NCBI GenBank assembly: GCA_035390665.1
Contig: DAOOUC010000003.1
Coordinates: 90,001-122,000 of the forward strand
DNA: 32,000 nt
Reading direction: 5' to 3'
Source: an archaeon
Lineage (GTDB): Archaea; Iainarchaeota; Iainarchaeia; Iainarchaeales; CSSED10-239
The position numbers and the translations under genes were made by a program. Positions 17,900 to 23,800 of the stretch are shown in pieces. A model generated the notes under the pieces. The model saw only the letters and a program-made list of their open reading frames with translations, made no database searches and was not told the DNA's origin. How positions within the stretch are numbered: the stretch's first letter is position 1; every line of letters begins with the position of its first letter.

Positions 17900-20800
17900 T
17901 TAATTAATTCCTGTTATTCCAATCCCTGTGTATATGTTATTATTTCCATAGATTACTTTTGGATTCCAATAGAATTCTGTAGTCTTTCCACTATCAGAAT
18001 TAACAACACAAATTTGGTTGGTTTTCACTTTCTCAAAGATGTTTGTTAAATTATCTGTATTATAATTTTCGCCATTACTTAAAAGATTCTTGGTATAACT
18101 GTCGTTTGGATTTTTATTATCTTTATTAAATTTAACAATTACATCTCCTCTTGATTTACTTGTTAATTTATAGATGCTATTATGTGAATCATAAGGAACA
18201 TAAAATATTGTTCTTAAGTTTACTATTCCTTTTCTTGCAACAGTATCCCAATCTATTGCATAAGAATTATACATTCTTTCATCAGGTGTTGTTTGTCTAT
18301 CATAGAAATTTATAAATCTAGAATATACATATTCTCCTGAGAAATCATAATAGTTACTATCTCCAACTCCATTCCATACTCCTAAACTAGTGCCACCATA
18401 TAATGGTTGATTTGATGGATCCGTTATTTGATAGTATGCACTAAATGGCATTAAATTTGTTCTTGTTACGCTCATTAATGTTGCATTTGGATAGTTTGGA
18501 GAATAGATTAATTGAATCTGATCTTCTGTTTGTTCTTTTATTGTAAGTATGTTACCTCTTGTTTCTACATTGCTGTTTATTTTAAAGAAATCTTTATTAT
18601 ATTGTACATTTAAATATTTCTTTGGATTTGATGAACTACTATATTTTGTAGTTAAAGGCAATTCTCCTTGTTTACTTATTGTTATTTCATCACCCATATA
18701 TGCTAAACCATAATTTTGTCTGGAATATCCATTGTTTGTTAAACCTACTGCACCATTAAATGGCATTCTGTAGAAAATACTATCGCTTTCTGGTCCAGAG
18801 ATATATGTTAAAGTTACTGTTGTATTAACATCTAAATCATCTGCTCTTATAAAATCCCAGTGCTCATTTCCAAATATAAAATCAATTCTTACTTTATATT
18901 TTCCTGGAACTAAAATGTTTACACCTGATTGATTATTTGTATATTTTAAATTAAATTCTGTGTTATCTCTAAACAATTTTGAATATATCCCATTTTGATA
19001 ATAACTTGGAGCACCTAAGAAAGCATAAGTACTTGATTGTCCAGCAGACATTTTTCCACCATAAGCTTTATCAAAGTCTGTTTGGAATTGTTTATTATAA
19101 TTGTCTGTGATTAGATATGCGTCAAACTCTATTGTTTGTTTTAATTGTTGTATGTCTTCTATATTCCATTCACTAATGACATTATTTGGATATTGTTCTT
19201 TATTAAACCACATATCTATGTAGTCTACTCCATTAAATTGAGCGGTTGTTATTGGAACTTGACAAGGACCTCCTGTTGGTTGTGCCTGGTGCACACTTAA
19301 ATTAATATCTGTTGTGTAATATGTTTGATTTGGATCTTCTAAATAAGTATTTGCTCCAGAATATTCAACTTCTAACTTAATATTGTTTCCTATTAGAGGG
19401 TTTGCTTGTTCACCATAAGTAAACCAATACTCTGCTGTATTTTCATTTTCACAAGCTGGAACTGTTGTGTTTAATATTGGATTGATTGTATTTATTCCAA
19501 TCACTGTTCCTTCAGTGTGTTGTCTTTCAGTTGTACAATTATCATTTGGAAGTAATTCTGTATATGATTTTAATATTTGATTTCCTAATTTTAGATTTAA
19601 TGTTCCTGTTTTTAAAGAACCTGTTCTATTTTCTATAACTACTCCAATCTTTACTAAATTACCATCTGTTCTTGCACTTACATTTTGTAAACCAATGTAA
19701 CCTGCAGGAATTTCATTATCTAGATTTGGAACACTTGAAGTTAAATTATATGATCCAGACAATGCTTGATCAAGAACTTGCCCTGTACTTCTTGGACAAA
19801 TTATTTCTTTATTTTCTAATTGATCTTCTACTTTTTTCATTCTTTCAATAATTACTTGAGACAATTGTGTAGCATCACAATATTGATTACCTGTGCTACA
19901 AACATTTGTATCAAAACCTGTTGTTTTCCATGTCCAATCAAGATTTACTTTTGGCACAGCTCCCTCTCCAGTTTTACCAACCTTCCCTGAATCTGTAAAA
20001 CAATCAACCATATTCTGGTCAACTTGTGGGCTATCAGGATATTGTTTAGAGATAAATGCAAATCTGAAATCTCCAATAGGTTGTGAACCAACAAAGGCTT
20101 TGTCTTGTGAACCATTATTATCATTTAAAGTTGGTTTGAAAGTAATATTCTTATAAACAATATCTCCTCTTAGAAGTTTTTGATATGTGCTATTGCCATC
20201 TATTGAATAATCAACAACGAAATCAATAGGTTTAATACCTGCTTGTTCTGGCCATATTGCTTTATCGTATTTACAAGAAGTATATACTTCAAATTCTAAA
20301 TTTATTTTATTTCTTGTTGGTTTACTACCATAACATTGAACTCCTGCAATTATTTGATCTTCAGTTACTTCATATTTATCAAATTTATCATTACAGTTTT
20401 CGTTTTTTACTATTCTTTTATATTCATCAAAGAATTCTTGGTGTTGTTTTCCACCACATTTTGGCATTTCTGTATCTAACATTTCATCTGATGTTAATTT
20501 ATTTGTTTTATCGTTATCAGTTTTACCTATTAATTTCAAATAAGTAAAATATCTTGCACCAGTAATATCAAACACATTTACAAATTCTTCTTGATCCCCA
20601 TCTGATATAATTTTAATTTCTTTTGTAGTTTCAAAGTCAGGCATCGTGTAAATTTGAGAAACATCTAAAACATGATAATGAGGATTAAATGAATAATCAT
20701 TATGCCAGGTTGATGCCATCCATCCACCAATTGCTATAACACCAATTGCAGCCCAACCCCATGGTCCAATTGCTGCTAATACCGTGTACAAAGGACCTAA

Positions 20801-23800
20801 AAATGCTCCACCTGCATATGTACCTGCAACAGATCCAAATACCATTGCCATTGTTAAACTACTAGTCCCTGCAGCTAATGCTCCGCCAATTATTGCTGTT
20901 GTTGCTAATGATGCTGCAACAGTAGATGCTGTATTCCACCATTCTGCTCCATCATCGGTTTGATTTGTTAATTCATTTGGGAGACTAAATAACATTTTTT
21001 CAAAATATGGACGTTCTTCTGAAGTTACCATAAATCTTGAAAAGCCTGTGTCGCCTTCAACTTTTTGAACAGCATAGTCCCAAGGTGTAACATTTATATC
21101 GCTGTTTAATAGTCTTACAGTCTGACTTGAATATATTTCTGTTCCAATTTCATTTTGTGTCTTTTCCATTTCTATAAATGGATCTTCCATGTATAATCCT
21201 GAAGAAGAATGTACGTTTACTTTTAATCTCTTTTCAATATTAACTATTGCCCTTCCCGTGTCTCCAAGAACAGATATCTTTACAGGTATAATATATGCTC
21301 CTGGTACTTCTGGCTTTATTATTCCAACAACTTGTGTTGTGTCTCCTCTATTAAAGTTTATTTCGTTCTGTAGAAGACCTTCCATGTTGTCGTATCTTAC
21401 TTTTTGACAACCATACCATTTCTTACCTTCACAGAATTCTAATTTAAATCTTCCAAGATCTGAACAATTATTCTTAACATTTAGTTCTTTTATTTCGCCT
21501 TCAAAAGTTTCTTTAGGTACTACTAACATGTTGTTAATCTTTTTTGAACCATCATAGAAGTCAATACAGTCTTGTATCTTTCTTATTGCAATGTCTGTTG
21601 TAAATGCTATTTCTTTTGAAGTATTTACATATTTTAAACCATCGTTAGTTTCTACTTGTCCATTAATATAAATCTTTGTCTTAACATCTCCAAACTTTTT
21701 ATCAAGAGCTCTATATTCAATTATTGCTGCGTGTGGTCCTGGAGATAAATCATTAAAGATTGTGGTATATGCTCCTTCTGAAAGAGTTATTGATTTACCA
21801 TCAACTGTTAAAATATAATTACCATACATGTCTTTATCATTAACAATTTTTGCTCTTATGTTCTTTAAGTTTATTGATTCTTCAGAATTTCCCTTTACTC
21901 TACAGTTGTTTGTTATTGTAAATGTTTGAATAACTGCACTATTACCACTAACAATAGATTGCCATGGATTACTTACTCCATTAACAACCAAACAATCATC
22001 TTCTTCTACTCCTTCGCCAACTGATAACTTAACATTCATTGGTATCTCAAATGGATAAGTAGTTTGACTTTCACCAACTAAAACATTACCTGTAATTGTC
22101 CCAACAAGATTTAAAGTTTCAACAAGATTTTCTGCATCTTGAGATGCTGCTAGTTTTAATTTAATATCTGCTTCTCCATTTGCTGGAACAACAATGTTAC
22201 CAACTTGAGAATTTAAATAATTCTTTAATTGTTCAATATTTAAATAATTAGAATTACTAAAACTAAAGCCATCGTCTGTAAATTCCTTTAATGTTAATGG
22301 ATAATCTGTTTTATTAACAATTGTTAATCTTTTCTCTGTACCTTGTGGATTTGATTTATTAATATTTAAAATAAATGGCGATGCGGGTTTTACTTCACTA
22401 CCATCTTGCTTTAAACTTAAAATGTCTTGATTAATAACTATTTCTACTGGTGCTGAATAATATCCACTTTTTTCTACAGAAATTATTATTTTTTCTGCAT
22501 TCTTTAATGGAGGTAAATTTATAGAAGCAACACCAATGTCGTTTGTTCGTTGTTGTCCAACATTTAGTGCAATTAATTGATTGTTTCCTTTTTTCTGATA
22601 GATGTTAACAATTGCATTAGTTATTGGTTGATTAGAATTGTCCATTGCAATTACTTTTAATGTAAATGCTTTATTTGGCACAATATTTTGTGGTTCGTAA
22701 GTAATTGTAAAAGGAAATTGTTGACTTGCAGTTATTTCTATCATCTTATTATAAGCAACTAATTGACCAGAAATTATTTTATTTTGTATTCTTGTTCCTC
22801 CAAGTAATACTGGTTTAATTGTGGTATTAACATAAATTTTATCATAAACATTAATTGTTTGAGAATCTAAATAATCCCCATAGAAAGGAATACTATTTCT
22901 TGTCTGTTCTCCACTACTTGATGAAGAACTAAATCCTGCTCCTGAAATTGTGTAATTTAAGAAATTAATTGCTTGTGTTGGTATTTCGTTATTATTTTCA
23001 ATATTCTTTATTGTTAATCTATTATTATAGAATACATTAGATTTAGCATTTGTTATTTCATAATTAAATTGATATGTTTTATTTACAATCAATCCATTAT
23101 TTGTTTCATCTAAATCATAAGCAATTCCATCCTCTGTATCTACAAACTGACCTTTTATACAGAAGTCTTCTGAACATAATTCACTTACATCAATATAATA
23201 GATTTTTTGATTACCAAGGGTGTTTGGTTCTGGTGCAACCCCAGTATAAATTGAGTAATATATTGGAATAGCTGCCCCTCTTGTAGCCGCAAGAGTTTGC
23301 ACAGGTATAGTTAATTCATAAACTCCTGCCTGCACATTTGAAAACATTGTATCTGTCATCTTTGTTGGAGAATCTTGTAATACTCTTGTTGGTAAAGTGT
23401 CTGAATAATATGCTGTGTTAGCTATTGAATTAAGTATTGGTTTAATTAATACAATATCTTCAGTAATATTATTTTTTTCTCCAATTAAAAACCTAATTCC
23501 GAGATTTCCTGGATTTGGTGTGATTAATCTAAACTTAAAATTAAATCTTGCATTTTGTGTAAAATTTTCTGTTGATTGTTCTGAAATATTATATAATCCA
23601 ATTAATTCTGCTGTTGGAGTTGTTGCATATCCAGATCTATATAATTTTATTTCTTTATTTAATGTTTCATTCTTAATTACAGGCATTAATTCTGTAAAAT
23701 AATCATAATATCCTGTTTTGCTTATTTTAGCATAAACTATTTTATCTGCTTTTATTTTTTTATTATAAATTCCTGATTGATTTGCTTGATCAAGTCCTAT

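Follow-up and report, generated by a model that had tools for sequence, protein, structure and literature searches.

The closest described counterpart of the locus reported here is found in Candidatus (Ca.) Forterrea multitransposorum, which encodes a cluster of five large (>1,800 amino acids, aa) membrane-anchored proteins (Probst & Banfield 2018, PMC5905446). We analysed a 32,000-nucleotide stretch of archaeal DNA, hereafter the window (assembly GCA_035390665.1, contig DAOOUC010000003.1; C3:90001-122000 of an 848 kb genome that is 86% complete), in which the gene for a 2514-aa giant surface protein contains a charge-free, Gly/Ala-rich hydrophobic cluster in mid-chain. We propose that this cluster probably forms a two-helix hairpin in the cell's own cytoplasmic membrane. 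The Forterrea chromosome (CP045477.1) encodes a full-length ortholog (35% identity over aa 1317-2499) with the same internal hairpin, AIGIGIGTAAIVSLVLIMA-K-VAVLGSLLGPVGWIVAGLSIVVASIAPSFF, and a similarly ordered cluster of giant genes occurs in a Diapherotrites metagenome-assembled genome (MAG) that carries the ortholog P0015. The mid-chain hairpin, the two-ectodomain topology and the superfamily to which the protein belongs are not described in the Forterrea paper (PMC5905446), and beyond one sentence on Forterrea our literature search found no description of this architecture.

A second comparison is offered by the adhesins of Gram-positive bacteria, of the MSCRAMM (microbial surface components recognizing adhesive matrix molecules)/Cna type and those with SpaA and CarboxypepD_reg domains. 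Pfam matches to CarboxypepD_reg, SpaA, SdrD_B and Big_1 fall within aa 73-984 of the 2514-aa protein, and the best single-domain Foldseek matches of its C-terminal half are to Cna, FnBPA, Cnm, SdrG and integrin-type sandwiches. However, these fold matches are generic: they concern single domains, and their TM-scores do not exceed 0.5. Gram-positive adhesins are anchored by LPXTG/sortase or by a single helix, and we know of none with a mid-chain hydrophobic hairpin.

Layout of the 2514-aa protein

The gene (17900-25444) starts with GTG and consists of a single open frame on the minus strand, which carries all large open reading frames (ORFs) of the window (GC content ~0.26) and to which all window coordinates of genes and protein segments given below refer. 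The chain opens with a K/R-rich tail (aa 1-35; 25340-25444) containing the motif INERIPIKWLTKPIDK, followed by an I/L/F-rich N-terminal signal anchor, TM1 (~aa 36-56; 25277-25339), which is recognized by its hydropathy and its identity among orthologs (19-residue Kyte-Doolittle hydropathy, KD19, of 3.1 for aa 36-54). Ectodomain 1 (aa 57-1501, ~1445 aa; 20942-25276) is, according to Pfam and AlphaFold2, a chain of immunoglobulin (Ig)-like or prealbumin-like β-sandwiches. Ectodomain 2 (aa 1581-2514, 934 aa; 17903-20704) is β-rich in the AlphaFold2 model and has invariant Cys and Trp residues in the alignment. Nine Cys are invariant in the aligned fragment, eight of them in ectodomain 2 (aa 1663, 1704, 1724, 1815, 1849, 1856, 1883 and 2061).

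The hydrophobic cluster lies between the two ectodomains and occupies aa 1502-1580 (20705-20941; WWNTASTVAASLATTAIIGGALAAGTSSLTMAMVFGSVAGTYAGGAFLGPLYTVLAAIGPWGWAAIGVIAIGGWMASTW), as delimited by composition, alignment and GC content. Its 79 residues include no D, E, K, R or H, which make up 20.8% of the whole protein; from the whole-protein composition, the chance of such an uncharged run is ~0.79^79 = 1e-8 per position. G, A, S and T account for 58% of the residues and I, L, V, F and M for 28%, with 19 Ala, 14 Gly, 9 Thr, 6 Ser and 6 Trp, the six Trp being placed at the ends and at the turn, and the mean Kyte-Doolittle hydropathy is 1.06. At the DNA level the cluster has a GC content of 0.43, compared with 0.25-0.28 in the flanks. 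Slippage was considered as the origin of its expansion and rejected, since no tandem DNA repeat was found in 20500-21150.

Four elements can be distinguished within the cluster. Proposed helix H1 (aa 1504-1523; 20876-20935) rests on an AlphaFold2 helix and on hydropathy (KD19 of 1.5-1.6 for windows over aa 1508-1536). It is followed by an uncharged Gly/Ala-rich middle stretch (aa 1524-1559; 20768-20875), defined by the alignment and modelled as low-confidence coil, and by a G-P-W-G-W motif (aa 1560-1564; 20753-20767), the best-conserved element of the cluster, which may be a turn or the N-terminal end of the second helix. Proposed helix H2 (aa 1560-1579; 20708-20767), likewise based on an AlphaFold2 helix and hydropathy (KD19 of 1.8), ends in W..W followed by HNDY. 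A preliminary description of this DNA, made from the letters alone, had recognized some 80 residues of G/A/S/T and hydrophobic character in mid-chain, preceded by ~1440 and followed by ~930 residues, and had noted that both ~2000-aa paralogs in the window lack such a cluster. These observations hold: the uncharged run counts 79 residues with ~1445 before it and 934 after it, and a hydropathy scan of either paralog finds only the N-terminal anchor.

In the arrangement that we propose, the conserved basic N-terminal tail would be in the cytoplasm and TM1 would cross the membrane outward, placing ~1445 aa of Ig-like domains outside the cell. H1 would then cross inward and lead into a short cytoplasmic or interfacial turn centred on G-P-W-G-W, which in this lineage is preceded by ~35 extra uncharged Gly/Ala-rich residues, probably in or at the membrane. 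H2 would cross outward again, so that the 934-aa Cys-rich, adhesin-like module would also be outside. The protein would thus have three membrane helices and two ectodomains, the first tethered at both ends and the second by its N-terminus. Owing to the Gly/Ala richness, the two helices can probably pack tightly, whether with one another, with TM1 or with further copies in an oligomer.

Conservation among orthologs and in the wider superfamily

A word-indexed search returned 32 orthologs (2392-2525 aa, 29-98% identity), which were aligned with the 2514-aa protein over their full length using MAFFT (n=33). Their source MAGs bear the labels Candidatus Diapherotrites, Ca. Iainarchaeum and Ca. Forterrea multitransposorum, which makes the organism behind the window a DPANN archaeon of the Iainarchaeota/Diapherotrites group; its small-subunit rRNA scores 1352 bits against the archaeal and 1056 bits against the bacterial model. 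The orthologs are collinear over the full length and have a strikingly constant size. An uncharged hydrophobic segment of 30-95 aa is present at the same alignment position in 29 of the 33 proteins. The only recurrent sequence element within it is a turn-like (A/L)-x-G-P-(W/Y/V)-G-(W/I), followed by a hydrophobic stretch of ~18-20 aa and by (W/F)-x-N-(D/E)-Y; GP[WYV]G[WI] or PxWGW is aligned in most orthologs. In the shortest clusters, of 40-50 aa (P0010/15, P0017, P0025 and P0032), two hydrophobic stretches surround the turn, corresponding to two helices of 17-24 residues.

The middle Gly/Ala-rich stretch behaves differently from this core. It is absent from P0010, P0025, P0032 and P0017 and is not conserved in P0003; judged from the alignment, it is a lineage-specific expansion of ~35 extra residues. 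The possibility that the whole cluster is a lineage-specific low-complexity insertion, raised at the outset, thus applies to these residues, which include GSVAGTYAG (aa 1537-1545), but not to the core hairpin that most orthologs have kept. A further expansion is seen in a relative, L012 (CAYXWT010000021.1, region ~aa 1500-1600), in which the first half of the cluster is an Ala/Thr/Gly low-complexity run of >100 aa (…IAATTTTTIVATAAATATTTVATTAGAAVAGTAAG…). The first part of the hairpin region therefore appears to grow and shrink readily.

At 21%, the mean pairwise identity of the cluster is the lowest in the protein, compared with 42-55% elsewhere, and its length is the most variable (60-131 aa for cluster and linker together). 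Conservation concerns physical character, in that a pair of hydrophobic helices surrounds a G-P-aromatic-G turn, the outer flanks are acidic and small residues abound. Low identity combined with a retained physical character is typical of a lipid-facing anchor. The most conserved regions are the N-terminal tail (62%) and TM1 (55%), which suggests that these have a specific cytoplasmic or intramembrane partner.

The wider superfamily was collected with a filter-only phmmer search, using aa 1382-2514 against 1.84 billion representatives (E<=1e-3). Among the 320 clusters of sequences obtained, ~14 match the full length of the query and the rest mainly its last ~450 aa; the remaining clusters are themselves giants of 2000-3250 aa. 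The widely shared C-terminal domain (~aa 2060-2505; 17930-19267) is matched by most of the 320. An N-terminal anchor is present in 118 of 123 full-length superfamily proteins, and 74 of the 123 have an internal segment with KD19>=1.6 at the position of the cluster; the median distance between its end and the C-terminus is 881 aa (mostly 760-990).

Two variations of the hairpin were found among distant members. In one group (P0100, P0070, P0085, P0102, P0066, P0101 and P0106) the hairpin turn is C-P-x-C, and in the members inspected H1 is closely preceded by a Cys (CDWG or CNWME) and H2 closely followed by a second one, within an acidic (E/D)DPC. These Cys, in the turn and at the flanks, could form a disulfide staple or a metal or redox site. 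In P0048 (aa 1458-1796), P0093 and P0097 (aa 1435-1740) the two helices are separated by an insert of ~250-290 aa, which is of low complexity, rich in Ala, Thr, Ser, Glu and Lys, and contains small Cys clusters (CCxC, CxxC). The insert has the appearance of a domain that arose within the turn of the hairpin, and fits a turn that faces a compartment able to hold a domain.

In a sample of 201 genomes from the phylum, the C-terminal 449-aa domain is carried by 168, including 55 of the 58 of high quality, mostly in 2-7 copies each and in ORFs of 2200-3250 aa. All genomes that carry it belong to one order, that of the source genome, and no match was found in 19 sampled genomes of five other families. 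The domain family is a hallmark of its order.

Topology and hydrophobicity of the cluster

By the positive-inside rule a basic tail is cytoplasmic. The basic N-terminal tail therefore indicates an N-in orientation, with ectodomain 1 outside. The C-terminal module must, on grounds of homology, also lie outside the cell, since it is related both to paralogs with a single N-terminal anchor and to ~975-aa proteins with a signal peptide, and it contains the eight invariant Cys. With both flanks of the cluster outside, the number of membrane crossings has to be even (0, 2 or 4).

Two crossings are favoured. Most relatives show two hydrophobic helices in hydropathy plots and in the alignment, and a pair of uncharged hydrophobic segments, each at least ~17 residues long and connected through a short turn, is recovered by hydropathy, alignment and AlphaFold2 alike. 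The outer flanks of the cluster are acidic: over 62 proteins, the 15 residues that follow it contain 189 D/E and 54 K/R, a lower share of K/R than the background K+R:D+E ratio of 0.67. Where the centre has a charge, which is rare, it is mostly one K or one H; in P0008, P0009, P0018, P0027, P0028 and P0029 this residue is located between the first helix and the remainder.

Insertion energies (ΔG) were approximated with the scale of Hessa et al. 2005, summed over 19-mers without position terms. On this simple measure the values are -5 to -7 kcal/mol for the N-terminal anchors and +8 to +9.7 for control regions of the ectodomains. For the best internal helix of 117 non-redundant relatives, ΔG is below 0 in 27, 0-2 in 22, 2-4 in 22, and 4 or higher, meaning that no cluster is present, in 46. 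The lowest value, -4.2, is comparable with the N-terminal anchors of these proteins, and the positional equivalents of H2 in relatives reach down to -4. Helices with a ΔG of -2 to -4 are expected to be integrated by the Sec translocon.

The AlphaFold2 model of aa 1315-2514, built on a 27-sequence alignment, has a mean predicted local distance difference test score (pLDDT) of 77, with confident β-rich domains on either side of the cluster (confident β structure for aa 1315-1496; pLDDT mostly 80-90 in ectodomain 2). The region aa 1497-1578 lies outside these flanking domains and has a pLDDT below 50. Helices are predicted at low confidence for aa 1504-1523 and 1560-1579, with coil between them, and in a fragment of the short-hairpin ortholog P0015 (L003) H2 alone is helical, again at low confidence.

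Several observations weigh against a membrane hairpin. The helices of the 2514-aa protein itself are marginally hydrophobic, with best values of +2.2 (H1) and +2.5 kcal/mol (H2) against -5.8 for TM1, so their integration into the membrane is not assured. The length of 79 aa would fit two helices with an embedded loop, or four short helices. In the cluster the fraction of G+A amounts to 0.34, compared with 0.14 for TM1, and it exceeds that of TM1 in 59 of 62 proteins; at 25% GC a plain anchor would be expected to drift to I, L and F as TM1 has done, so the elevated G+A points to a further constraint. Four of the 33 orthologs have lost the cluster (P0026, P0030 and P0033) or retain it in degenerate form (P0031). 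A Gly-rich segment that aligns with the cluster in the ~975-aa paralogs is not transmembrane-like (ΔG +5 to +11, with charges in two of three). Finally, neither AlphaFold2 model, of aa 1315-2514 or of the P0015 fragment, yielded the hairpin geometry with confidence; the structure prediction that the preliminary description had called for thus provides the two helices and not their arrangement.

The homolog in the ~975-aa paralogs and the losses among orthologs mean that the segment need not be a membrane helix everywhere. A rival reading is that the cluster is a low-complexity Gly/Ala/Ser/Thr linker between the ectodomains, flexible or self-associating outside the membrane, with a hydrophobic appearance that is a by-product of composition. 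The variable length and low identity of the region, the >100-aa run in L012, the pLDDT below 50 and the counterpart in the secreted paralogs, which is not transmembrane-like, would all suit such a linker. We nevertheless consider it very unlikely, because the cluster has no charged residue over 79 positions, six Trp at its ends and turn, and a substantial share of I, L, V, F and M, whereas the other extracellular linkers of these proteins are rich in N, T, S, D and E. Moreover, hydrophobic segments (KD19>=1.6) recur at this position in 74 of 123 superfamily proteins, with ΔG down to -4, and what is conserved is two discrete helices rather than a uniform tract.

Re-anchoring of the chain by an even number of helices, giving two ectodomains, had been one of two readings offered in the preliminary description. 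It is the better supported one, given a C-terminal module outside the cell, two helices, acidic flanks and an anchor-like helix in 27 of 117 relatives, and it is on these grounds that we infer membrane integration, helix number and topology. That small residues persist, at a GC content of 43% where the genome has 25%, points to selection for closely packed helices or for flexibility. The ortholog losses and the low sequence conservation suggest that the hairpin has an auxiliary role in anchoring or organising the protein, rather than a sequence-specific activity.

Possible membrane activity and glycine-zipper motifs

The second reading had been a latent membrane-inserting or pore-forming segment containing glycine zippers. 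In such a scenario the segment would be exported through Sec without being integrated, remain near the junction of stalk and head, and insert on contact into another (host) membrane, as a trans-anchor, as a fusion-loop-like element or as an oligomeric pore. The marginal hydrophobicity of the cluster here and in many orthologs (ΔG 0 to +4.5) is compatible with this, as a single helix in that range often escapes the translocon, and so are the small-residue richness kept against the AT bias and the amphipathic counterpart in the ~975-aa paralogs. A Gly/Ala-rich, uncharged segment with Trp at its ends may be said, by analogy, to resemble viral fusion peptides and glycine-zipper channel formers, and in the distant subfamilies the Cys before H1 (CDWG) and after H2 (DPC), together with the C-P-x-C turn, would suit a disulfide-stapled external loop. 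The protein also belongs to a gene cluster thought to mediate cell-cell interaction, in what is probably a symbiotic DPANN archaeon (PMC5905446).

Nevertheless, we regard a latent segment as rather unlikely. In the 27 relatives with an internal helix as hydrophobic as a constitutive anchor, that helix should be captured in the membrane of the producing cell, and a hairpin could not carry the ~250-290-aa insert between the helices of three distant members along when entering a target membrane. Sequence conservation is usually high in functional fusion peptides and in zippers that line a pore, whereas the cluster is the least conserved part of its protein; its zipper motif is neither above chance nor conserved, and four orthologs lack the cluster. 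The AlphaFold2 models and Foldseek searches of the Protein Data Bank (PDB) and BFVD revealed no coiled coil or heptad region, no cleavage motif and no fusogen or pore-former fold. The Foldseek matches in both databases are instead generic adhesin, Ig, Cna/FnBPA/integrin/CBM/tail-fibre sandwiches with low TM-scores.

The comparison with viral class I fusion peptides and internal fusion loops can be made more specific. They share with the cluster a Gly/Ala-rich, marginally hydrophobic composition and a mid-chain location in a large exported precursor, and some distant relatives add Cys on both sides and a central Pro. In contrast, the archaeal protein has no upstream basic cleavage site, no heptad-repeat helices in the AlphaFold2 model and a β-rich downstream region; the cluster is poorly conserved, no fusogen fold was found in PDB or BFVD, and the protein has an N-terminal membrane anchor. 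We also considered, and judge distinctly unlikely, that the hairpin is the membrane-active element of a DPANN contact apparatus, leaving the producer to insert into the host membrane at the tip of the ~1450-aa stalk, as a trans-membrane tether or a fusion-loop-like device, or building with TM1 and further copies a helical bundle, packed through small residues, as a conduit at the symbiont-host junction.

A transmembrane glycine-zipper motif was reportedly described by Kim and colleagues in 2005. Glycine zippers occur in the N-terminal channel-forming region of H. pylori VacA and define the Pfam families PF13441, PF13488 and PF05433. The cluster resembles them in being uncharged and rich in small residues, and contains three literal motifs of the (G/A/S)xxxGxxxG type within aa 1533-1554. 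However, shuffling the same 79 residues gives a mean of 1.17 motifs, and 13% of shuffles reach three (p=0.13). Many orthologs have 0-1 motifs and many lack them altogether; P0003, 81% identical over aa 1350-1900, does not share them. A Pfam search with aa 1497-1595 returned no family match at E<=10, the Gly-zipper families and PGF-CTERM included. Membership in this class was accordingly rejected. Of the earlier proposal, the strings GSVAGTYAG and AAIGPWGWAAIGVIAIGGW (aa 1557-1575) are present as reported, but the label of glycine zipper does not stand, and a latent pore-forming zipper receives no specific support from a motif count at chance level, a least-conserved region with losses among orthologs, and the fold searches.

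Flanking sequences and the question of processing

A different role for the cluster would be that of a processing or sorting signal, at which a protease, archaeosortase-like or other, would cleave the precursor into an N-terminal and a C-terminal surface protein, with one helix left on each as an anchor. A hydrophobic helix preceded by P-G-W-G or G-P-W-G bears a superficial likeness to the tripartite archaeal PGF-CTERM signal, with which the cluster shares a Pro-Gly-aromatic motif before a helix. Asp-Pro is found in the flanks (EDPF upstream; DPC in the distant subfamilies), and the C-terminal module also exists as a separate gene of ~975 aa. Unlike PGF-CTERM signals, however, the cluster is internal, 934 aa from the C-terminus, and is trailed by acidic rather than basic residues, and no Pfam match was obtained at E<=10, PGF-CTERM included. 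A search of the genome, which is 86% complete, gave no match to the archaeosortase family PF09721; this negative is weak, as the hidden Markov model (HMM) matched only 1 of 14 control genomes. No cleavage motif was found at the cluster, and its acidic flanks offer no basic site; the preliminary description had proposed to look for a protease or autoprocessing site there.

Two proteins of ~975-990 aa that start at the cluster, P0039 and P0042, would have been natural split genes. They were rejected as artefacts of gene calling: at the P0039 locus (L007) the DNA contains an uninterrupted 2505-aa ORF, and the same status is assumed for P0042. We consider processing at the cluster highly improbable, and return to the membrane hairpin as the reading that we prefer.

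Stand-alone paralogs of the C-terminal module are encoded in the source genome (C11:+16894, 975 aa) and at L003:6948-9884 and L007:524-3445. They have a cleavable-looking signal peptide, a run of ~12 acidic residues and an amphipathic, Gly-rich segment of 45 aa (e.g. SIVGNAISGVMGTVATQLTGALGAITGNPILTGVIGGAASAFMTY), and align with the C-terminal module of the 2514-aa protein with an hhalign probability of 99.1%. In L003 and L007 the ~975-aa gene is located directly upstream of the 2500-aa gene.

Neighbouring genes

The two paralogs in the window each have a single N-terminal anchor and, by hydropathy scan, no internal hydrophobic segment. The first (9449-15424, 1991 aa) has the N-terminal ~600 aa in common with the 2514-aa protein, together with weak C-terminal motifs; the second (3-5627) has 1875 aa in the window and 2142 aa in the genome. 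Upstream of the 2514-aa gene, a further giant ORF (26888-32000) extends past the window edge and reaches at least 1944 aa in the genome. It has no transmembrane-like segment, and since only ~1 kb separates it from the end of contig C3, the assembly may lack its N-terminus. Searches of Pfam with four accessory proteins of the window, of NCBIfam with five window proteins, and of PDB sequences with the whole 2514-aa protein (E<=1) gave no match.

A second cluster of giant surface-protein genes is present in the same genome, at C11:+3659 (2563 aa), C11:+11395 (1822 aa) and C11:+16894 (975 aa). An internal hydrophobic run in another giant of this genome (C13, 2076 aa) was examined as a possible paralogous cluster and rejected, being an ordinary strand-like stretch with charges nearby. 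Gene order was compared in full with one other genome, the Diapherotrites MAG with P0015 (L003/L004), in which the order of the giant-gene cluster is similar: 2353-aa, ~1550-1675-aa and ~980-aa genes, the P0015 gene, small ORFs, a ~790-aa gene and a 1979-aa gene.

Implications

The architecture proposed here is that of a membrane-anchored giant β-sandwich adhesin with an added mid-chain hairpin, and it is widespread in one archaeal order. It bears on the way in which DPANN archaea attach to other cells and trade material with them, in genomes that are very small and of which giant proteins of this kind fill several percent. A hydrophobic segment in mid-chain, probably a hairpin, recurs in many of these giants; it is located ~900 residues before the C-terminus, where a variable stalk meets a conserved head. 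The family thereby gains a defined and testable architecture, with three helices and two ectodomains, and a short peptide region is identified whose topology and membrane activity can be assayed without culturing the organism. If the hairpin is a second anchor only, it would provide a useful annotation of an uncharacterised family; if it acts on the host membrane, it would be a candidate for a physical link between symbiont and host.

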